From NCBI GenBank assembly GCA_965228875.1, contig OZ245843.1, positions 1,532,616 to 1,596,615 on the forward strand: a stretch of DNA of 64,000 nucleotides, read 5' to 3'. Made by a program: the position numbers and the translations under genes. Below, in pieces: positions 41,863-52,603 of the stretch. A model generated the notes under the pieces. The model made no database searches. It had not been told where the DNA came from and worked only from the letters and a program-made list of their open reading frames with translations. Position 1 is the first letter of the stretch; each line of letters opens with the position of its first letter. This stretch comes from Thalassobaculaceae bacterium. Lineage in GTDB: Bacteria > Pseudomonadota > Alphaproteobacteria > Thalassobaculales > Thalassobaculaceae.

Positions 41863-44800
41863 TTGTCCGAGGCATTGCGGCGTCCGAGAAAGGAACGGCG
41901 CCACCTGACCGTCATGTTCGTCGACCTCGTCGGCTCCACGGGACTGGTGGATGCGCTCGATCCTGAAGATGCACAGGACGTGTTCGACGCCTTCTCCGGC
42001 CGCTGCGCCGAGATCGTCGGCGCGTTCGGCGGCTATGTCGCGCGCATCGAGGGCGACGGCGTGCTCGCGTATTTCGGATTCCCCACCGCCCGCGAGGACG
42101 CCAGCGAGCAGGCCGTACGCGCCGGGTTGGCGATCTCGTCGGCGATTTCCGAGATCCGCACGCCGATGGGCACTTCCCTGGCCTGCCGGACCGGCATCGC
42201 CTCGGGTTCGGTGCTGGTCGGCGAGGCGCATACCTCCAGCGGATCGGTGTTCTACGAGGTCGTCGGACGGGCGCCGCACGTCGCCCGCCGCCTGCAGGAA
42301 CAGGTCGATCCGGGCGAGGTGGCGGTGTCCGATGCGGTCTATCGCAAGGCCGGCGGGTTCTTCGTCTGCGCGCCGCACCCGCCGATTCGCCTCAAGGGTT
42401 TCCGAAATCCGGAGATGTTCTGGCGGGTTCGCGGCCAGCGCGAGTTGCCGCTTCGCTTTCTTGCGCGGGACGCCCTGCAGCGATGCGCCTTCGTGGGCCG
42501 CACCGAGGAACTGACCATCCTCCACCGCCTGTGGGACGAGACGATGAGCGGCGCCGGAGCGGCCGTCGGAATCGTCGGCCCGGCCGGCATCGGCAAGTCG
42601 CGCGTCGCCTACGAGTTCGTCCATTCGATCTCCGAGGACGCCCCGCACCTCGTCCTGATGCAGGCCAACGCCCATCAGCGAAACAGCGCCTGGCAGCCGC
42701 TGCGCGACGAACTCAACCGCCACCTGGACGCGGTTGCCGTGGGGTCCGAATCACGGCTCGAGACCCTGTCGCGGGAGCTTGCGCCCGGCGACGCGGGGCG
42801 GAAAGACGCCCGCGCCATCCTTCGGATCCTGGAAGACGGACACGGCGGCGCAACCCCGGCCCGGCCGACGGAAGAGCGCGCACGGCTCGTCTCCGCCCTG
42901 GTGCGCCGACTGGAAGGGATAGCCGCCGCGACGCCGGTGGTCGTGGTCGTCGAGGATGTCCAGTGGCTGGACGAGTCGTCGATCGAGTGGCTCGAGGCGT
43001 TGGTCGCCGGGGTGGCGCAGCACCGGATTCTGGTCCTGCTGACCAGCCGGGAGAGCCTGTCTACCCGCTCCGGCCTGGACGTGACCGAGATTCCGCTGAC
43101 CGGCCTCCGACAGGACGATGCGCGCGCGATGGTCGACCTGCTGATCGCGGAGAAGCCGTTCGCCCATCTGGATGCCCAGGCCGTTCTGACCAAGGTCGGC
43201 GGTATTCCGCTGTTCATCGAGGAATACGTCACCCATCAGATCGACCGCGTCGCGGCGCGGAAAGGCAACGGCGGCGGCGAGCCGAACGTCGATCCGGACG
43301 ACGCCCCGACGACGCTGATGGATCTGCTTGGCGAGCGCATCGACGAGTTGGGCCCCGGCAAGGCCTTCATCCAGGCCTGCGCCGTCTGCGGCGATGTCTT
43401 CGACCTGAGATTGGTCGCGGGAGTCGTCGGCGTCGACATCGAGCGGGCGATCGCGATCATCTCGGATCTGGAATCCCGCGGGATCCTCACCGGCAGCGCC
43501 GTCGTGGGCGACGAATTCCGTTTCCGCCACGCGCTTCTGCGCGACGCCGGATACTCCAGCCTGCTCAAGGCCGACCGGATCGCCCTCCACGCCAGGATCG
43601 CCGGGGTGATGGAGAGCCACGCCGGGCAGGACGGCGTCGCGGTCGCTCCGGAGGTCCTGGCCTGGCACTTCGCCGAAGCCCAGGACGTCGACAAGTGCCT
43701 CACCTACCGGTTGGTCGCCGCCGACAAGTTCAAGGGGCAGTTCGCCGCGACGGAATCCATCCGCCAGCTCGAGCTTGCGGTCGCCGATGCCGAATCCCTG
43801 GACGACGCCCGGTCCCGCCGCGAATGGCTGGTCCGGATCTACAACCTGCTCGGCGCCACCCGCAGCATCTTCTTCGGCTGGGGCGATCAGGCCGGACAGG
43901 AGTTCTTCGAGAAGGCTCTCTCACTCACGGTCACCAGCGACGAAAGCCGGGCGACGTTCGACTCCGTGCGCGGGCTGTGGAACGCCAACATGATCCAGGG
44001 AAACTTCCCCCTGGTCGCCGTTCTCACCCGCCAGCTCAGCGCGATCGCCGCCCAGTCGAACGACCCGATTATGAAAGTGGACGCCGCCAACGCCAACGGC
44101 GCCTATCGCCTCTGGTCGGGAGACTTTCGAGCCGCGCGCGAACACTTCGACGAAGCGATCCGGTTGTACGAGCTGTTGGGCGGGCACTGGCCGATCGGTG
44201 CGCCGGGCACGGACCCCGGCCTCGTCGCTCTGAGTCTCGGTGCCTGGAATGCATGGTTCCTCGGCGACCGCGAGACCGCCCTGCGCACCATCGACGTCGC
44301 CAAGGAACGGGCCGGGGAACTCGGACACGCGTTCGGCCTCGCCTATGCGTTCAGCATGTCGGCCTCGATCTGGCAGACGGAGCGCGATCCGGACAGGGCC
44401 ATGGCCGAGGCCGAGCGGGCGGTCGAAATCGCCAGCGAGCACCGCTCCCGCATGCGCTACTGGATCGATCGCAGTGGCATCGTGATCGGCTGGGCCACCT
44501 CGCTGACCGGCGACACCGCAGCCGGGATCGCCCGCATCCAGGAGGCCATCGCCTCCTACCAGAACGGCGGCGGCGGCCTCCACCTCCCCTATGCCCGTAC
44601 CCTGCTGGGAGAGTGTCTGCTGCTGAGCGGTGCCGTGGAGGAGGCCGAGGCGGAACTCCTGCGTGCCGCGGAGGTTCTCAGCGCGCAGCATCCCTACTAC
44701 TACAACTCCGAACGCCTGCGCCTGCTGGGCGAAGCGCGGACGCTCCGGGGATATTGGTCGGAAGGCGCGAATGCCTTCACCTCCGCCCTCGACCTCGCCG

Positions 44801-44874
44801 ACGATTTCCGGTCGCCGCCGCTGCGCGAAGCGGTCCTTCGCTCCCGAGCGCGGCTTCAGCCGGTCAGTTCCTGA
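41863..44874 (+). CDS. Class III adenylate/guanylate cyclase - STAND AAA ATPase - TPR protein
   Basis: RRHLTVMFVDLVGST, EGDGVLAYFG; Walker A GPAGIGKS; Walker B VVVVEDVQW; GGIPLFIEE; FRHALLRD; helical repeats at the C-terminus. Confidence 0.92.
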   Translation: MSEALRRPRKERRHLTVMFVDLVGSTGLVDALDPEDAQDVFDAFSGRCAEIVGAFGGYVARIEGDGVLAYFGFPTAREDASEQAVRAGLAISSAISEIRTPMGTSLACRTGIASGSVLVGEAHTSSGSVFYEVVGRAPHVARRLQEQVDPGEVAVSDAVYRKAGGFFVCAPHPPIRLKGFRNPEMFWRVRGQRELPLRFLARDALQRCAFVGRTEELTILHRLWDETMSGAGAAVGIVGPAGIGKSRVAYEFVHSISEDAPHLVLMQANAHQRNSAWQPLRDELNRHLDAVAVGSESRLETLSRELAPGDAGRKDARAILRILEDGHGGATPARPTEERARLVSALVRRLEGIAAATPVVVVVEDVQWLDESSIEWLEALVAGVAQHRILVLLTSRESLSTRSGLDVTEIPLTGLRQDDARAMVDLLIAEKPFAHLDAQAVLTKVGGIPLFIEEYVTHQIDRVAARKGNGGGEPNVDPDDAPTTLMDLLGERIDELGPGKAFIQACAVCGDVFDLRLVAGVVGVDIERAIAIISDLESRGILTGSAVVGDEFRFRHALLRDAGYSSLLKADRIALHARIAGVMESHAGQDGVAVAPEVLAWHFAEAQDVDKCLTYRLVAADKFKGQFAATESIRQLELAVADAESLDDARSRREWLVRIYNLLGATRSIFFGWGDQAGQEFFEKALSLTVTSDESRATFDSVRGLWNANMIQGNFPLVAVLTRQLSAIAAQSNDPIMKVDAANANGAYRLWSGDFRAAREHFDEAIRLYELLGGHWPIGAPGTDPGLVALSLGAWNAWFLGDRETALRTIDVAKERAGELGHAFGLAYAFSMSASIWQTERDPDRAMAEAERAVEIASEHRSRMRYWIDRSGIVIGWATSLTGDTAAGIARIQEAIASYQNGGGGLHLPYARTLLGECLLLSGAVEEAEAELLRAAEVLSAQHPYYYNSERLRLLGEARTLRGYWSEGANAFTSALDLADDFRSPPLREAVLRSRARLQPVSS

Positions 44875-44908: not shown

Positions 44909-45661
44909 TCAGGGTCGCGCGTCGGCCCAGGTCGTGAAGGCATCCCAGGCAAGCGTTCCATTGAACTCGTAGCGCACCTGCTTCGGGCTCTCGAACGCGT
45001 CGCCACTGGCGGCCAGCCGTTGGAGTAGCAGCGTCGCATCCTCGGCCTTCACGTCGACCGGCCGTTCGACGAAGTATTCCCGCAGAACCGCGAGGTCCGA
45101 CTCGCACACTCCGAAGGACCAGGCCCGATCGACGATGTTGGCTACCGTGCGGTCGCGGTATCCGAGCGACTTTGCCGCGTTGCGGAACAGCCGCATGCTC
45201 TCCAGGCTGGCGAGCCGATCGACGCAGACGGTCTCGAGGGTCGCGCGGATGCTGACCATGGCCAGGCTCAGCGGCCGGTAACCCAGGTCCGCGGGACCAT
45301 GGATCACCGCGACCTCGTCGTCATCCTCGATCCGGCCGGTCCGGTAGGCATCGTAGACCGTGCCGATCCCTTCCATCCCGAAGCTGTCGAGTTCGGCCGC
45401 CCGCAGTGCGCCGATGCTGGACGCGCCCAGGACGTGCACGCCCTGCGCCATCGCCCACAGGATCTCCTTGTGCCAGACCGAGGGGACGGTGTCGAAGTAG
45501 CCGTCGATGATGGCGATGACCTTCGGTGCGTGACGTAGGGCCAGATACACGTCGCCCTGGCGTGCCGGCCCCTTGAAGATCACGTCGCCGAAACCGTTGT
45601 CGCCGAAACCGTCCCGGGCGGCGGGCGGAAGCGACGGACCGGCAAAGACAACGGCCGTCAT
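44909..45661 (-). CDS. tfuA: TfuA-like protein
   Basis: VFAGPSL, GPARQGD, IIDGYF..VPSVWHKEI, GASSIGALRAAEL..FGMEGIG, DDDEVAV.H, DVKAEDA. Confidence 0.93.
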   Translation of the reverse strand: MTAVVFAGPSLPPAARDGFGDNGFGDVIFKGPARQGDVYLALRHAPKVIAIIDGYFDTVPSVWHKEILWAMAQGVHVLGASSIGALRAAELDSFGMEGIGTVYDAYRTGRIEDDDEVAVIHGPADLGYRPLSLAMVSIRATLETVCVDRLASLESMRLFRNAAKSLGYRDRTVANIVDRAWSFGVCESDLAVLREYFVERPVDVKAEDATLLLQRLAASGDAFESPKQVRYEFNGTLAWDAFTTWADARP

Positions 45662-46884
45662 GGCTCCAGCCCCGCAGCCGCCAGGGCGCGCCGTCCCGGC
45701 CGGTAGCGCCGCGCCTTCGGATTGCCCTCAAGCCCCGGCACGATGACCCGCACCACCGGGATGTCGAACTCCGGTCGGCTCAGGTCGACCACCACCGCCT
45801 GGGTCAGGCCGACGGCGGCCAGCCGGTCGAGCATCCGTTCGACGAGCACCCGTGCGCTCCGGCCGTTCAGGGTCGGCACGTCGTCGAACCGGACCGGCGG
45901 CGTGGTCGGCGGCGCGGCGGCGATAGCGGGTCTCGGCATGTAAGGCCGTTCCTCGTAGACCGCCGGGTCGATGTCGTCGCGCACACCGGCGATCATCGTC
46001 AGCCGTCCCTGGGCAGCCTCGGAGAGCGCGCGCGACAGCGCGATGTTGGAAAACGGGTGGCAACCGTGGCCTTCGAAACCGGAAACCGAAAGCCGTATCC
46101 CCTCTGTGTGGGGTCCGGTCCAGACATGGAACGCCGGAACGCCGACATCCGACGTCATGTTCCAGGCGCGAACCGGCACGCCCGCCGCGGCGAACCGGTC
46201 GAGCAGCCAGCGGCAATGGGGATCGGACACGCTCTCCAGATCGAGCTCCGTTCGGTCGCGGTCCGCGCTCCGGCGTGTCCGCCACAGCGCGAGGCAGTCG
46301 CGTTCGATCACCTCGCTCAGGCCGTGACAGACCGCCTCGTCGACATGATTGCCAGACGCGAGGCCGTTGGAGGTGCACAGGAAGTATCCGCCGCCCTCCG
46401 GCATCGGCGTGCGGAAGTCCGTGTGCACCGCCTCGTACGGCACCCAGACCGGATGACCGGCAGCCATGTCGGTGCCTCGGATCCACAGCAGCCGGCTCGA
46501 TGCCGTCAGCCTGCGACGGGCCGACAGCGCCATCGCGGTGACATCGGCGACCGTCTCGCGGAACCGGATCTCGTTGTACGAACCGAGCAGCAACGGCGAC
46601 AGGATATGCTCGCCATGATAGATTTCGATGGCCTCCATCAGGCCCGAGGCCTTTGCCGCATCGAGAGTCGCGCCCTTGCCCTGCGCGACCGATACCGACC
46701 GCGCGTTCGGCCGCGTCACCATGACGACGGGGATGCCGACCGAGTCGAGACCGGTGACGTTGGCGACCCGCGTGATGCCGAACACGGGCAGCAGCGGGGT
46801 CACGCGGTCGACGGTCTCGCGCGGTGGGCATACCCGGGTCGTCCCGGGTATGTCAGCGAATGTAACCAGACCAGCGTCGTTCAC
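45658..46884 (-). CDS. ycaO: YcaO-family protein (TfuA-associated, thioamide-forming type)
   Basis: GITRVANVTGLD, SVAQGKG..SGLMEAIE, TSNGLASGN..HGLSEVIERD, RALSEAAQGR, RVIVPGLE; stop overlaps the tfuA start (ATGA); GTG at 46884 has a GGGAGG RBS. Confidence 0.93.
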   Translation of the reverse strand: MNDAGLVTFADIPGTTRVCPPRETVDRVTPLLPVFGITRVANVTGLDSVGIPVVMVTRPNARSVSVAQGKGATLDAAKASGLMEAIEIYHGEHILSPLLLGSYNEIRFRETVADVTAMALSARRRLTASSRLLWIRGTDMAAGHPVWVPYEAVHTDFRTPMPEGGGYFLCTSNGLASGNHVDEAVCHGLSEVIERDCLALWRTRRSADRDRTELDLESVSDPHCRWLLDRFAAAGVPVRAWNMTSDVGVPAFHVWTGPHTEGIRLSVSGFEGHGCHPFSNIALSRALSEAAQGRLTMIAGVRDDIDPAVYEERPYMPRPAIAAAPPTTPPVRFDDVPTLNGRSARVLVERMLDRLAAVGLTQAVVVDLSRPEFDIPVVRVIVPGLEGNPKARRYRPGRRALAAAGLEP

Positions 46885-46933
46885 CGGACCCTCCCACGGG
46901 CCAGAGGCGAAACCGGGCGGCGGCGGATCGGCG

Positions 46934-47164
46934 TCAGCTGCCGTCGATGCCGTCCATGTAGCTGAAACCGTCATCGGCGCTGGCCGTCCCGTCGCTGCGC
47001 AGCGCGAAAGCCTTGTTCGGGTGCTGGGCGCCCGCGCGCGTCAACACTTTCTCGAACACCGGATCGTTGTCCAGGCGGTCGAGCAACCGGGTCTTCTTGA
47101 TCTCGTACCAGTCTCCGTTATCGGCCTGATAGAAGATCCCAACAGTCCAGACGTCATCGGCCAT
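46934..47164 (-). CDS. 76-aa small protein, candidate RiPP precursor / YcaO-TfuA substrate
   Basis: Strong GGAGGAG RBS; first gene of the ycaO-tfuA unit; Asp/Gly-rich tail SDGTASADDGFSYMDGIDGS. Confidence 0.7.
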   Translation of the reverse strand: MADDVWTVGIFYQADNGDWYEIKKTRLLDRLDNDPVFEKVLTRAGAQHPNKAFALRSDGTASADDGFSYMDGIDGS

Positions 47165-47243
47165 GGTCCCTACTCCTCCACAATGGCGCGCAGATTGCGG
47201 CGGGAGCGTAACACTCTTGTCGGCCCCGGCTTCACCCTTAAGC

Positions 47244-47259
47244 TGTGTGAGAATTCACA
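47244..47259. promoter_or_regulatory. CRP-like box in the divergent promoter between the peptide-ycaO-tfuA unit and the metalloprotease
   Basis: TGTGT-GAGAAT-TCACA, 9/10 match to TGTGA-N6-TCACA. Confidence 0.65.
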
Positions 47260-47326
47260 CTGACGGTGGGGGCGCGGGGACCAACGCTAGCGTCGGGGTT
47301 CAGTGTTCTTGGTGGGGGTAGGAATC

Positions 47327-49501
47327 GTGGACATCGCCTCGATCGTCGCGCCGGAATCGGCGCCCTTCCAACCGCCCACCGGGGACGCGCCGCAGCTGTC
47401 GGGACCGTGCCCCTGGCCCCATGATCCGGCGGCGATAACGCCCCTGTCACCCGAGGCCGTTGTCGGTTGCTGGTACGTGGTCGCCATGGACGGCGAAACA
47501 CCGGTCTATCAGGGGGTGCTTCGGGGATCGGACGACGGCGGCGCCCTCGCGGTTTCCGGCGACCTCTATCGTCTGAGCGCCGGCGCGGCGGTGAGCAGCC
47601 TGCCCCGGTCCCACGAGATGCTTCGTACCGACGACGGGTGGTACGCCCAGCCAGGCCGCAGCGACTACGCGCTGCACCTGCGCTCCATGGGTGGCGCCGT
47701 GTCGACGACCGGGCTCGCCGTGAACGCCAGAGCCTATGTCTGGGAACCGACGCGGGACGGCAAGGCCAGCAACCGGGTCGGCGACTTCACCCGCTACGGC
47801 GACACCGTGCTCGCGCTGACCCCGCGCGGCTCCGCCACACCGGTCGGCGGCCTGCCCTCGGCGGCCGTGCTTGCTGGCGGGGTCATGGTCGACGGCCACG
47901 TCCTCGAGCTCTGGGCGGTGAAGTCGGCCGCCACGCCGCGCGCCCTGCGTCTTGTGGTGCACGAGATGGAGGGGCGCCCCTGGCCCGCCGACACCCCCTA
48001 CAACACCGACATGCTCGCTCGGATCTTCCGGGACGCGGGCGTCAGCATGCAGATCCTCAGAAACGCCGACGCGATACCGAGTGACGACAGCCTGATCCGC
48101 AGCGAACTCGACACGATGCTCGCCGATCAGGTGGTGCGCTACTACGCCGGGCCGCTGTGGGTGCAGCACCTGTTCCTGGTGTCGTCGCTGAACTGGTCCG
48201 GTCTCGATACCGCGGGCCGGTTCGGACACATCGTGGGCATGATGTTCGACAATACCGACCGGCACCGTCAGGGCGTCGCCGTGTTCCTCGACACCACGAT
48301 CGAGAGCTCGGTCGAGGAACTGACCGACCGCATCGACACGACCGTGCTCGGCCGGCCGGTCGCCAGGACTCCGCAGGTTCTACTCCGCACCGCCGCCCAC
48401 GAGATCGGCCACGGTCTCGGCCTGCGCCACACGCCAACCGAGGCGGCGGGGGACCGCGGCATCATGAACCAGATCCAGGAACTGCTGCGCCAGGTGGATC
48501 CCGCCACCGGGCCGCTGTTCCCGGAGAACGCGCAGATGTCCTTCGACCGGGTCGCCAGCCGCAACCTGAGCCATCGCCCCGACCCGGAGGTGTGCCCCGG
48601 TTGGGGAAACTGGAGCGCGCCGCCGAAGGGAGTCGCCCTTGGCCTGCAGGCCTACCCCGAGCGCGCCCGCTCCCTCGGCCAAGACCCGGTCCTGCTCCTG
48701 GGCTTCTCCTCGAAGCCGGCGAACGAACTGGCCACGTCCGCGGCCCGGCCGGTCATCATGCGGACCTTCGATCTCGGCGAGCCGGTGTTCCTCGAACTCA
48801 CCATCCGCAACCTCACCGACGAGCCTGTCACCGTTCCGTCCTCCGTCACCCTGTCGGACGGCCTGTCCGAGGCGGCGGTCCGCGATCCCGGCGCCACCCG
48901 TCGACGGCTGGTGGGCACCGCCCAGACCGTGTGCGAGGGCACCGGCATGGTACGGCTCGCACCGGGGGCCGAGCACCGACACACCCTTCAGCTCCACAGC
49001 AGCGGCGAGGAACCGGTGTTCTCCCGACCCGGCGAGCATCGGGTCGAGATCGCGATCAAGACCCGGGAGTACGGCTGGATCGAGGCGCCGGGAATCACCG
49101 TCGCGATCCGCCCGGACGTGCCCGGAACCCGCAGCGCCCTGGCCGTCACCGGGCGCCACCCCTTCTGCGAGGCCATGGCGCTCGGCTACATCGCCACCTA
49201 TCGCGGCGTGTCGGACACCGACAGGCTGTTGCGCCATGGCGCCTATCCTCTCGGCGCCCGGATCGCCGCGGGCGTCCTGCAGGTCGCCACCTTCGCCGAA
49301 CCGCCGGCCGGCATCGCCAAGGACCGCATGTCGCCGATGCGGCCGAACCCGGGACGGGTTCAACGGGCCATCGGCCACCTCAAGGAAACCGGCGTGAGGC
49401 GGGACGTGGTCATCGCCGTGGCCCAGGCGATCGATCCGCTGACCGAGAGCAGTTCGGCGGTGGCCGAGGCGCTGGCCGCCGGTTGGGACGCCGCCGGCTG
49501 A
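47327..49501 (+). CDS. Metzincin-type zinc metalloprotease with a C-terminal Ig-like domain
   Basis: AHEIGHGLGLRH (HExxHxxGxxH) plus Met-turn GIMNQ; FDLGEPVFLELTIRN..PGEHRVEI beta-sandwich; GTG start after AGGA (ORF track start 47303). Confidence 0.82.
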   Translation: MDIASIVAPESAPFQPPTGDAPQLSGPCPWPHDPAAITPLSPEAVVGCWYVVAMDGETPVYQGVLRGSDDGGALAVSGDLYRLSAGAAVSSLPRSHEMLRTDDGWYAQPGRSDYALHLRSMGGAVSTTGLAVNARAYVWEPTRDGKASNRVGDFTRYGDTVLALTPRGSATPVGGLPSAAVLAGGVMVDGHVLELWAVKSAATPRALRLVVHEMEGRPWPADTPYNTDMLARIFRDAGVSMQILRNADAIPSDDSLIRSELDTMLADQVVRYYAGPLWVQHLFLVSSLNWSGLDTAGRFGHIVGMMFDNTDRHRQGVAVFLDTTIESSVEELTDRIDTTVLGRPVARTPQVLLRTAAHEIGHGLGLRHTPTEAAGDRGIMNQIQELLRQVDPATGPLFPENAQMSFDRVASRNLSHRPDPEVCPGWGNWSAPPKGVALGLQAYPERARSLGQDPVLLLGFSSKPANELATSAARPVIMRTFDLGEPVFLELTIRNLTDEPVTVPSSVTLSDGLSEAAVRDPGATRRRLVGTAQTVCEGTGMVRLAPGAEHRHTLQLHSSGEEPVFSRPGEHRVEIAIKTREYGWIEAPGITVAIRPDVPGTRSALAVTGRHPFCEAMALGYIATYRGVSDTDRLLRHGAYPLGARIAAGVLQVATFAEPPAGIAKDRMSPMRPNPGRVQRAIGHLKETGVRRDVVIAVAQAIDPLTESSSAVAEALAAGWDAAG

Positions 49502-49527: not shown

Positions 49528-50217
49528 TCAGATGTTCGAGATCATCGCCCGCAACCGATCGATATCGAGAACCTCGAGCACCTGGCGGGACTTGCGGATG
49601 ATCCCCTCGCCCTCCAGGTAGGCCAGTTCCCGCGACACCGCTTCGCGGTGGGTGCTGATCCGGTTGGCGATCTCGAGATGGGTCGGCGGACTCTTGATGC
49701 GGCAGGTGCCGTCCTTTTCCACCGGGACGTCGCCGGCCATGCGCACCAGCTCGGCATGGATCCGGTTGTTCACGGCGAGGGTGCTGAATTCGAAGACCCG
49801 CTCGCTCAGACTGCGGACCTGCTGCACCAGTTCGGCGATGAACTTCATCGCAACGGCCGGATGCTCCTGGATCAGCGTCAGGAACTCCGCCTGACCGAGC
49901 ACCGCCGTCTCGCAGTCGGTGAGCGCCACCACCGTGGCCGAGCGCGGGCGGGCGTCGATCGCGGAATACTCACCGAAAATCGCCCCCTCCTCCAGGTCGC
50001 GGTAGGAGACCTCCTTGCCGCCGGTGGAGAACCGCTTCGCGCGCACGCGGCCGCCGGTGAGGATGTAGACCACGTTGGTCAGGTCCTGCTCCCCGACGAT
50101 CTGGCGCCCCCTCTGGTACTTGCGCCAGTCGCAGAGATCGCCGACGCGGTCGAGCACCGCATCGTCGAGATCGGCGAACAGATAGGCCTTCTTTAGCTTG
50201 GAAGCGCGTGCGTTCAT
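49528..50217 (-). CDS. Crp/Fnr family cyclic-nucleotide-binding transcriptional regulator
   Basis: cNMP cassette FGEYSAIDARPRSATV; HTH PTHLEIANRISTHREAVSRE; no Fnr cysteine cluster. Confidence 0.93.
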   Translation of the reverse strand: MNARASKLKKAYLFADLDDAVLDRVGDLCDWRKYQRGRQIVGEQDLTNVVYILTGGRVRAKRFSTGGKEVSYRDLEEGAIFGEYSAIDARPRSATVVALTDCETAVLGQAEFLTLIQEHPAVAMKFIAELVQQVRSLSERVFEFSTLAVNNRIHAELVRMAGDVPVEKDGTCRIKSPPTHLEIANRISTHREAVSRELAYLEGEGIIRKSRQVLEVLDIDRLRAMISNI

Positions 50218-50489
50218 GGCCCCGGTCCGTCTCCCCCTGACGTCAGCCTCCATCCCGCCGTCCGGCATCGGACAGACAAGCGGCTCGAAACGCATACGAT
50301 GTTAGTTGCTCCATCGGCATCCGACCACCGTTTGGCCGTTCGAGGCAACCGCCGCGCTATCAGCCATCGGCGCACAACTCGACGAGGACGACCGGCTTCC
50401 GAGCTAACCACGCACCTCTCGTAACACTTTAGAACAACGATATAAAATATTAATAATAATAAATTTTGTTTGATTTCACATACAAACGA

Positions 50490-50516
50490 CGCCCTGCCCG
50501 CATCGCGGACAGGGCG
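50490..50516 (-). terminator. Probable intrinsic terminator of the BMP ABC operon
   Basis: Minus-strand stem CGCCCTGTCCGC / GCGGGCAGGGCG followed by TCGTTTGT. Confidence 0.6.
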
Positions 50517-50546
50517 CCGGACCGGATCGAACGGTCGCCGCCGCGA

Positions 50547-51608
50547 TTACTGCGGCAGCGTGTCGTCGACGCCCTTCACGTACCAGTTCATGCCCAGCAG
50601 CGTGCCGTCGTCCAGGACCTCGCCCTCGCCGACGGCAAGCGTGCCGTCCTGCTTGTAGATCGGCCCGGTGAAGGGATGGAACTCACCGGAGGTGATCTTC
50701 GTCTCGGTTTCCATCGCCATCGCCTTCACGTCGTCCGGCATGTTGAGGTAGTCGGCCATCACGACCATCTTGGCGTCCATTCCGCCCCAGGTGTCGGTCG
50801 ACTCCCAGGTGCCGTCCAGCACCGCCTCGGTGCGGGCGACGTAGTAGGCCGACCAGTCGTCGATAATCGCCGTCAGTTGTGCCTTCGGAGCGAACTTGAC
50901 CATGTCGGACGCCTGGCCGAAGCCGACGACCCCCTGCTCTTCGGCGATCTGCAGCGGCGCGGTGGAGTCGGTGTGCTGGGTGATGATGTCGGCCCCCTGA
51001 CCGATCAGCACCTTCGCGGCATCCGCTTCCCGGCCCGGATCGAACCACGAGTTCACCCACACGACCTTCAGCTTGAAGTCCGGATTGACCGACTGCGCAC
51101 CGAGAAGGAAGGCGTTGATGCCGCGCACCACTTCCGGGATCGGGAACGACGCGACATAGCCGGCCACGCCGGACTTCGACATCTTTGCGGCGATCTGCCC
51201 GATGATGTAGCGGCCCTCGTAGAACCGCGCCGAGTAGGTCGAGACGTTGTCGGCGCGCTTGTAGCCGGTGGCGTGCTCGAACTTCACGTCCGGGAACTTC
51301 TTGGCAACCGCCAGCGTCTGCTCCATGAAGCCGAACGAAGTGGTGAAGATCAGGCCCGCGCCCTGGCGCGCCAGGCGCGTGATCGCGCGCTCGGCATCCG
51401 GCCCCTCGGCCACCTTCTCCACATAGACGGTTTCGACCTTGTCGCCCAGCGCCTGCTCGATGGCGAGGCGCCCCTGGTCGTGCTGGTAGGACCAGCCGTG
51501 GTCGCCGATCGGACCGACATAGATGAATCCGACCTTCAGCGGATCCGCGGCGGCGGTTCCGGCGGTCATCGCCAGCATCGCCAACGCGAGCACGAGAAAC
51601 TTCTTCAT
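50547..51608 (-). CDS. BMP family (purine/nucleoside) ABC substrate-binding protein
   Basis: KVGFIYVGPIGDHGWSYQH, FTTSFGF, WFDP, QHTDS. Confidence 0.92.
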   Translation of the reverse strand: MKKFLVLALAMLAMTAGTAAADPLKVGFIYVGPIGDHGWSYQHDQGRLAIEQALGDKVETVYVEKVAEGPDAERAITRLARQGAGLIFTTSFGFMEQTLAVAKKFPDVKFEHATGYKRADNVSTYSARFYEGRYIIGQIAAKMSKSGVAGYVASFPIPEVVRGINAFLLGAQSVNPDFKLKVVWVNSWFDPGREADAAKVLIGQGADIITQHTDSTAPLQIAEEQGVVGFGQASDMVKFAPKAQLTAIIDDWSAYYVARTEAVLDGTWESTDTWGGMDAKMVVMADYLNMPDDVKAMAMETETKITSGEFHPFTGPIYKQDGTLAVGEGEVLDDGTLLGMNWYVKGVDDTLPQ

Positions 51609-51682
51609 AGACCCCTACTCCTGTCCTGTTTCTTTCGGAAACCGATTGCCGGGCCGCGAGCGCGCGGCCCCTTCTCCCTCGC

Positions 51683-52603
51683 TCACCGGTCCGGCACGAA
51701 CGTCTGTCCGATGCAGGCCGGCGTGTTTGTCTTGGTCAGCGTCCTGTTTCGCGAGATCAGGACCAGGACCAGAATGGTTATCAGATACGGGAAGGACGAC
51801 AAGACCTGGGACGGGATACCGATCCCCAGCCCCTGGACGTACAGCCCCATGATCCAGACCGCGCCGAACAGATAGGCGCCGACCAGCACCCGGCGGGCGA
51901 CCCAGGTCGCGAACACGACGAGGGCGAGCGCGATCCAGCCGCGTCCGGCGGTCATGTTCTCGATCCACTGCGGCGTATAGGCGAGCGACAGGTAGGCGCC
52001 GGCCAGGCCGGCGCAGGCGCCGCCGAACAGGATGCATCCGTAGCGCACGGCAACCACGTTGTAGCCGAGGGCGTGCGCCGAGTGGTGGTTGTCGCCGACC
52101 GCCCGTATCGTCAACCCGAGGCGGGTGCCGGACATCACGTAGCTGACGGCGAACACCAGGGCGAAGGACGCGTAGACCAGCACGTCCTGGCCGAAGAGGA
52201 TCGGGCCGACGAACGGAATACCGGACAGCACCGGGATGTCGATCGCCTGGAGCTTGACCCCGGGCAGGCCGGTGAAGCTCTCCCCGATCAGGCCCGAGAG
52301 GCCGAGGCCGAGGAGGGTCAGCGCCAGGCCCGACGCCACCTGGTTGGTTGCCAGCGTCTGCGTCAGGAAGCCGAACAGCAACGCCATCGCCATGCCGGCC
52401 AGCACCGCGGCGACGACGCCGAGCCCGGGCGATCCTGTGGCGTAGGCGGCGGCGAACCCGCAGACCGCGCCCACCACCATCATGCCCTCGACCCCGAGGT
52501 TCAGCACGCCGGAGCGTTCGACGACCAGTTCGCCGATCGCCGCAAGCAGCAGCGGTGTGGACGCGGTGATGATCGTCAGGATGACCGCTTCCAGCCCCGT
52601 CAC
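51683..52603 (-). CDS. Nucleoside ABC permease
   Basis: ERSGVLNLGVEGMM, GRGWIALALV, PYLITI. Confidence 0.9.
   Translation of the reverse strand: MTGLEAVILTIITASTPLLLAAIGELVVERSGVLNLGVEGMMVVGAVCGFAAAYATGSPGLGVVAAVLAGMAMALLFGFLTQTLATNQVASGLALTLLGLGLSGLIGESFTGLPGVKLQAIDIPVLSGIPFVGPILFGQDVLVYASFALVFAVSYVMSGTRLGLTIRAVGDNHHSAHALGYNVVAVRYGCILFGGACAGLAGAYLSLAYTPQWIENMTAGRGWIALALVVFATWVARRVLVGAYLFGAVWIMGLYVQGLGIGIPSQVLSSFPYLITILVLVLISRNRTLTKTNTPACIGQTFVPDR

Follow-up and report, generated by a model that had tools for sequence, protein, structure and literature searches.

Few substrates of paired YcaO and TfuA proteins have been characterised, among them McrA, the thioamitides and the thiovarsolins, and thiopeptides such as thiopeptin are also modified by pairs of this kind. 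The ycaO-tfuA pair considered here lies in a GC-rich stretch of 64,000 nucleotides from the genome of a Thalassobaculaceae bacterium (the window), and it raises the question of which molecule the two enzymes act upon. A small open reading frame of 76 codons plus a TGA stop (46934..47164, minus strand; product P0001) precedes the pair, and an earlier note, made from the DNA letters, had put it forward as the gene of a precursor peptide and possibly of a new thioamitide family. Whether this frame is a gene at all, whether its product is the substrate of the enzymes or their partner, and to which known class of system it belongs are the questions addressed here.

The earlier note had credited the frame with a GGAGGAG ribosome-binding site and an end about 50 nt before the likely start of ycaO, and both features were confirmed. 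The Shine-Dalgarno sequence GGAGGAG (47173-47179, minus strand) stands 8 nt before the ATG, and the stop codon (46934-46936, minus strand) is separated by 49 nt from a conserved GTG of ycaO at 46884. The longest possible ycaO frame, which opens at an ATG at 46974, would share 41 nt with the 3' end of the small ORF. In relatives, however, homology begins at residues 28-29 of this long frame in all tblastn alignments, and the conserved GTG carries a GGAGGG-type site upstream, so that GTG 46884 is the true start of ycaO.

Comparative evidence bears directly on the reality of the small gene. GC-rich genomes yield many long spurious ORFs, of which a 211-aa plus-strand frame overlapping the small gene (46628..47263) is an example, and a reader might suspect an unexpressed chance frame here as well. 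Such an explanation is hardly credible in view of the conservation observed: a full-length frame is open in all nine genomes that carry it (seven encode 76 aa and the other two 94 aa), the AGGAG core of its Shine-Dalgarno sequence is unchanged in 9/9 upstream alignments, and codons 1-59 give dN/dS values of 0.02-0.40 at dS of up to ~2 (Nei-Gojobori, all 36 pairs). Base composition at the three codon positions (GC1/GC2/GC3 of 0.59/0.41/0.86) places GC3 far above GC2, and GC3 among the orthologues ranges from 0.70 to 0.91. Contigs of near-identical environmental strains show two single-base variants, at 47009 and 47044, neither of which alters the encoded residue. The small protein is also among the predictions of public gene callers, and its homologues in MAG records are labelled 'hypothetical protein'. 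Contigs from a sequencing run (X19) that we guess to be RNA cover parts of the operon, including 46874-47115, at a depth that cannot rank the genes, and were given no weight as evidence. On these sequence comparisons, 46934..47164 is a genuine gene, and the chance-ORF explanation can for practical purposes be dropped.

The distribution of the gene follows that of the enzymes. A six-frame search recovered the small ORF in 9 of 41 related genomes, its own included; it occurs in 8 of the 10 other genomes of the same genus-level group and in none of the 30 genomes of other genera. Searched for in the same 41 genomes, TfuA appeared in the identical nine and, as an unrelated TfuA with 41% identity, in a genome of another family (G037). 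Homologous small ORFs beside related ycaO-tfuA genes, which the earlier note had proposed to look for, are therefore a reality: ycaO lies directly downstream of the small ORF on the same strand in 9/9 genomes, and the order small ORF, ycaO, tfuA is seen in all six loci having 6-kb flanks. This co-occurrence and synteny are less independent than the count suggests, because the nine genomes are kin. Two genomes of the same genus-level group that are reduced to 1.5 Mb (G002 and G010) gave no match to either the small-gene or the TfuA query, a pattern that fits removal of the entire operon as these genomes shrank. At one locus (L007, near position 645, from the 80%-complete genome G001) the ycaO match falls into two overlapping pieces in different frames, which represents either a frameshift or an assembly error.

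Beyond this clade the small protein is scarce. A profile search gave no homologue of it in 400 other genomes sampled from across the Alphaproteobacteria, yet YcaO homologues (E<=1e-10) are present in 32 of these genomes, 16 of them at 44-51% identity; the small protein thus belongs only to the form that the operon takes in this clade. Among 1.84 billion representatives, an exhaustive HMMER profile search returned eight proteins at E<=0.001. Beyond the family proper, the same search gave one distant relative of 116 aa (P0010, E 1.7e-07), which is known from a single 576-nt contig. Five other candidates (P0009 and P0011-P0014) were judged spurious, being long, highly repetitive proteins whose scores were summed over 3-11 stretches. 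Metagenome scans with the family alignment A3 and then with P0010 added no confirmed relative. The protein matched no family at E<=1 in Pfam or NCBIfam, which we take to hold models of the NHLP and Nif11 leaders, and no leader family of, for example, those two types was matched at that threshold. In the ESM Atlas, recognition stayed below the useful mark and reached unnamed viral clusters only. As far as these sequence searches extend, the family comprises one genus-level clade and a handful of proteins from metagenomes, the 76-aa P0004, P0006 and P0007 among them.

The next-nearest alphaproteobacterial ycaO genes (47-50% identity) are themselves preceded by small ORFs, which belong to a different family (L029, 1098-1328; L030, 1088-1324; L036, 1185-1361; ycaO on the plus strand). 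These share an N-terminal motif R-G-A-D-G-R-L-Y and probably constitute another uncharacterised precursor family. Their 'ADGRLY' likeness to the present proteins is one of a short motif only, since a leader HMM, searched against all six reading frames of 29 loci that surround ycaO genes of other Alphaproteobacteria, found nothing below E 0.76.

The anatomy of the small protein is informative with regard to its role. An alignment of 13 family sequences (A1) contains 22 invariant columns, 18 of which fall within residues 1-61, and residues 62-68 vary freely before a C-terminal end of the form [MIG]-[DE]-G-[IVT]-[DE]-G-x, in which G72 and G75 are invariant. The protein accordingly divides into a leader-like domain of residues 1-59 (46988-47164, minus strand) and a part of residues 60-76 (46937-46987, minus strand) composed of a variable linker and a terminal [DE]-G-[IVT]-[DE]-G motif. 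When the seven orthologues of 76 aa are taken together, summed pN/pS reaches 0.61 in residues 60-66 and 0.40 in residues 67-76 but stays at 0.18 in residues 1-59, which indicates strong purifying selection on the last-named segment. The earlier description of a leader-like N-terminal part followed by a distinct tail is borne out by this contrast between a conserved segment and a variable tail.

The composition of the tail had been described as rich in Asp-Gly and devoid of Cys. For the sequence of this strain the description is accurate, with SDG, DDG, MDG and IDG and no Cys among the last 20 residues. As an account of the family it holds in part. Three of the four dipeptides are conserved, D58-G59 being invariant in A1 and two further ones being kept as [DE]-G, but the DDG is private to this strain; and the lack of Cys is a peculiarity of the strain, as position 69, here Tyr, is Cys in 9/13 family members. 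At least four DG dipeptides occurred in the last 20 residues in a fraction of 4e-05 of 100,000 whole-protein shuffles and 0.0011 of tail-only shuffles. This enrichment alone is unremarkable at genome scale, and it is the conservation of the dipeptides that constitutes real evidence.

Variation in the number of tail units provides a further indication. In L008 and L009, the pair of 94-aa orthologues that diverge furthest (51-55% identity), the C-terminal end consists of three tandem 9-residue units with G-[DE]-G-T-[DE]-G, and the distant relative P0010 combines a recognisable N-terminal motif with three 21-residue cassettes, each having C-M-E-G-[IV]. Judged from sequence, the triplication of the tail unit in orthologues is the strongest sign that the tail is a RiPP core. 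An AF2 model built on a shallow alignment (mean pLDDT 64) predicts a beta-beta-alpha-alpha-beta arrangement followed by an unstructured tail, with pLDDT <50 for residues 68-76; it gave no Foldseek match in the PDB at E<=0.001 and a best VIA-align Z of 3.7. A conserved N-terminal part with a variable, disordered tail of changing unit copy number is the layout of a leader-plus-core or multi-core RiPP precursor. The two repeat-core loci also hold a strong 14-16 bp hairpin between the small gene and ycaO (L008:1780-1900 and L009:1780-1900, z -2.7 and -3.3), which is confined to them, the corresponding z of the window being +1.08 and no better than shuffles; this hairpin could set the ratio of precursor to enzyme transcript.

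The two enzymes encoded downstream are recognisable members of their families. The ycaO gene (45658..46884, minus strand) encodes 408 aa from the conserved GTG and matches Pfam YcaO (PF02624) at 9.8e-80, and tfuA (44909..45661, minus strand), which overlaps the ycaO stop by 4 nt, matches Pfam TfuA (PF07812) at 8.4e-44. For both, the best NCBIfam model is an equivalog for thioamidation of the McrA glycine: TIGR03266 gives YcaO 220.9 bits against a cut-off of 365, and NF033432 gives TfuA 184.2 bits against a cut-off of 235.2. From these sub-threshold scores, the two proteins are relatives and not members of those equivalogs. The nearest relatives of solved structure are, for YcaO, the thioamide-forming MJ1094 (PDB 6pe3, E 3.1e-29) and, for TfuA, a TfuA-domain protein (PDB 6xp8, E 2.7e-29). 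The genome holds this one YcaO only and, elsewhere, one gene of the ThiS/MoaD family (PF02597, 69.6 bits). When YcaO (alignment A4) and the small protein (A1) were modelled as a complex, ipSAE values of 0.00 and 0.02 were obtained in runs made without controls, and these speak neither for nor against binding.

The conserved block extends somewhat beyond the three genes and comprises a crp-like gene, the small gene, ycaO, tfuA and a convergent cyclase-STAND gene. The crp-like gene (49528..50295, minus strand) encodes a Crp/Fnr-family regulator with a cNMP-binding domain and HTH_Crp_2; it is syntenic in 6/6 loci with 6-kb flanks and lies directly upstream of the small gene in L008 and L009. The convergent gene (41863..44874, plus strand) encodes an adenylate/guanylate cyclase-AAA_16-TPR protein of STAND type and is likewise syntenic in 6/6 loci with 6-kb flanks; this synteny is what suggests a link between it and the operon. 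Upstream of the small gene, ~93 nt from its ATG, is a CRP/FNR-type inverted repeat GTGTGA-N4-TCACAC (47245..47260), which can also be written xGTGx-N6-TCACA. Across nine loci (alignment A2) its right half-site TCTCACA is invariant and the GTG core of its left half is kept. This box, together with the flanking crp-like and cyclase genes, suggests that the operon may be under cyclic-nucleotide control. Between the box and the gene, an extended -10-like element TGnTAnnnT (47205..47213, minus strand) has T124, G125, T127, A128 and T132 invariant in 9/9 loci and might, as a weak inference from this conservation, serve as a promoter element. A scan for consensus promoters and terminators gave no terminator, and no sigma-70 promoter at the expected place.

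A divergent gene (47303..49501, plus strand) encodes a 732-aa metzincin-like protein with an HExxHxxGxxH motif and with Reprolysin and Matrixin matches below the cut-offs; a GTG near 47326 is its likely true start. In 7/9 genomes it separates the crp-like gene from the small gene, and it is absent from both genomes with triplicated cores, which leaves the minimal block with no conserved peptidase. At a guess, its product could be the peptidase that cleaves off the leader. The conserved block contains no exporter, immunity gene, dehydratase, flavoprotein decarboxylase, methyltransferase or E1-like adenylating enzyme. Beyond the crp-like gene lies an unrelated ABC uptake operon of Bmp/PnrA type, where a 469-aa Arg-rich ORF (50466-51875, plus strand) is a shadow frame and the real gene on the opposite strand (50547-51608, minus strand) encodes the Bmp/PnrA-type ABC substrate-binding protein.

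Taking the conserved linkage and the leader/core layout together, we consider it likely that the 76-aa product is the substrate, a ribosomal precursor, of backbone thioamidation by YcaO-TfuA. What the earlier note had proposed as a precursor for this pair thus stands in its genetic part, as a conserved linked gene with a leader and a core, and the thioamidation itself follows from the nature of the enzymes as a probable consequence. In the mechanism that we infer, which extends to binding, thioamide site and number, cleavage, export, regulation and biological activity, a minimal three-gene operon of the small gene, ycaO and tfuA would supply the precursor and both enzymes. Its transcription would probably be under the adjacent Crp-family regulator, acting through the conserved CRP-type box, with the cyclase as a possible source of the signal. 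Residues 1 to ~59 would be the leader, a recognition domain through which the peptide docks on YcaO, and the enzyme would then, at the expense of ATP, activate the oxygen of one or more backbone amides in the disordered tail. The likeliest site of thioamidation would be the conserved [DE]-G-[IVT]-[DE]-G unit and specifically its central G72, which is the best candidate because of the kinship of the enzymes with a thioglycine-forming pair. TfuA would deliver sulfide, probably by hydrolysing a thiocarboxylated carrier of ThiS/MoaD type encoded elsewhere in the genome; according to the available text of PMC13063428, thioamide-forming YcaOs outside sulfide-rich habitats tend toward this combination of a thiocarboxylated ThiS homologue and a TfuA hydrolase. 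The outcome would be one or more thioamides on the tail and, from the triplicated unit of L008 and L009, several copies of a short modified peptide. Release of the core would be optional, and might be carried out by the metzincin-like protein where it is present or by housekeeping peptidases, as has been proposed for the thiovarsolins.

Adjacency does not prove a substrate relation, because thioamide-forming YcaOs can modify full proteins encoded elsewhere. The small protein could accordingly be a folded accessory, scaffold or regulatory partner of YcaO-TfuA, with the true substrate being a larger protein encoded at another place, as McrA or uL16 is. At 59 residues, the apparently folded N-terminal part would make a long leader, and this counts against the precursor; the strong conservation of that part as a predicted small beta-beta-alpha-alpha-beta domain, and a minimal block that has neither an exporter nor a conserved protease, would be at home in an accessory protein, and thioamidation of protein substrates is established for other YcaOs in the sections of PMC13063428 available. 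What makes this explanation unlikely, though worth keeping in view, is that a variable disordered tail with unit triplication in orthologues would be unexpected of an accessory protein. The enzymes speak against it as well. With NF040716, the model of uL16/S12-associated YcaO, the present YcaO scores 36.5 bits where the cut-off is 700, so that it does not belong to the type that modifies uL16; TfuA is never encoded near uL16-type YcaOs according to the same text (PMC13063428), and both proteins score below the cut-offs of the McrA equivalogs. Several of the same observations are compatible with a variant in which the small protein is the substrate but its modified product is something other than a released and exported peptide of antibiotic type: the block has no exporter, immunity gene or conserved peptidase, the folded N-terminal domain is unusually long, and a conserved CRP-type box is present. 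The whole protein, or its acidic Asp/Glu-Gly cassettes, would then bear thioglycine-type thioamides and serve to bind metal or to signal, within the cell or in the periplasm, and cyclic-nucleotide signalling via the Crp-type regulator and the cyclase would switch this factor on. We hold this variant to be distinctly improbable; if true, it would represent a bacterial 'dedicated thioamide protein' between the RiPP and protein-cofactor paradigms.

A role of the small protein in sulfur delivery was also weighed, in which it would be a ThiS/MoaD-like carrier whose C-terminal thiocarboxylate is hydrolysed by TfuA to feed sulfide to YcaO. Its 76 aa are a ubiquitin-like length, it starts with a beta-hairpin, 3/13 family members end in Gly-Gly, and TfuA is reported to act with thiocarboxylated ThiS homologues (PMC13063428, available text). 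Yet PF02597, which readily finds the genome's own ThiS/MoaD gene, gives no match to the small protein at E<=1, and no beta-grasp match stood out in structure searches, for which the model was poor. The C-terminus is unconserved across the family (Ser, Ala or Gly) and is extended by repeats in two orthologues, and the block has no E1-like adenylating enzyme. A sulfur carrier is on this evidence very improbable, and the precursor reading is the one retained in the comparisons that follow.

The closest functional analogue of the small-gene operon is the thiovarsolin pathway of Streptomyces varsoviensis (VarA/VarY/VarT), as it is described in the portion of PMC6511847 available. There, VarA beside YcaO-TfuA is an experimentally proven precedent for a multi-core precursor, the number of core repeats in the family ranges from none to five, and release by host peptidases is proposed in the place of a dedicated protease. 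Both systems have a YcaO-TfuA pair beside a precursor with a repeatable core unit. They differ in that the small protein has no sequence similarity to VarA, its core is the acidic, Gly-rich [DE]-G-[IVT]-[DE]-G whereas that of VarA is APR, and the present system, which is without heme-oxygenase-like, ATP-grasp and amidinotransferase genes, belongs to an alphaproteobacterium and is known from genes alone. That the host is a marine alphaproteobacterium and not an actinomycete matters in any comparison with the mostly actinobacterial literature on thioamides.

Thioamitides are defined by Ser/Thr dehydration, by tailoring genes for AviCys/AviMeCys formation and by a C-terminal Cys in the core. With those of the thioviridamide and thiostreptamide S4 type the present system has the YcaO-TfuA pair in common, which implies backbone thioamidation of a ribosomal peptide in both. 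The other defining genes, however, are absent, as the conserved block lacks genes for dehydration, AviCys formation and methyl transfer, the C-terminal Cys from which an AviCys/AviMeCys ring could be made is missing, and the core is not rich in Ala and Val. Without those genes and that Cys the system is not a thioamitide, and the suggestion of a new thioamitide family has to be withdrawn. The fitting label is 'YcaO-TfuA thioamidated RiPP candidate'.

The archaeal system that forms thioglycine on McrA (MJ1094, 6pe3; TfuA, 6xp8) supplies the best models and structures for both enzymes, but here a small peptide made for the purpose would be modified, where the archaeal substrate is a large subunit of an enzyme. 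An invariant Gly in the candidate core would fit thioamidation of a glycine as occurs on McrA. The E. coli-type YcaO offers another example of thioamide formation in Pseudomonadota, as proposed here, although in the available description (PMC13063428) EcYcaO is of a different subfamily, has no TfuA partner and acts on the folded protein uL16.

Genome mining has also drawn attention to small ORFs of this kind. The mycobacterial 'Network 1' (PMC6511847, RiPPER, Suppl. Fig. S8, Dataset 4) consists of short unannotated ORFs that adjoin YcaO-TfuA and were proposed as precursors solely through genome mining; as far as the available parts of that source describe them, these peptides of ~24 aa lie near a type III PKS and a sulfotransferase and are unrelated to the present family. 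Four five-residue motifs from the leader and tail of the present family are absent from the supplement text of PMC6511847 that was available. A global survey found 797 putative precursor families adjoining TfuA, proteobacterial ones included, according to the available text of PMC8120280. The supplement text available for that survey contains no mention of Thalassobaculum and none of three family motifs, and its Supplementary Table 5, which covers the precursor families, may list the present family. In a literature search, no paper combining Thalassobaculum and YcaO was found.

What the small gene adds is therefore a new precursor family within an already known kind of system, and not a new principle. 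An experiment is feasible, because a public culture collection has a type strain, Thalassobaculum litoreum DSM 18839, whose genome carries the orthologous cluster (locus L013). The system has several useful traits, including a compact set of three genes, an acidic, Gly-centred core unlike those of the characterised substrates compared here, and a unit copy number that varies from one to three. Thioamidation of this peptide would widen the substrate range of the thioamide-forming YcaOs and would provide a simple model for leader recognition and site selection by these enzymes.
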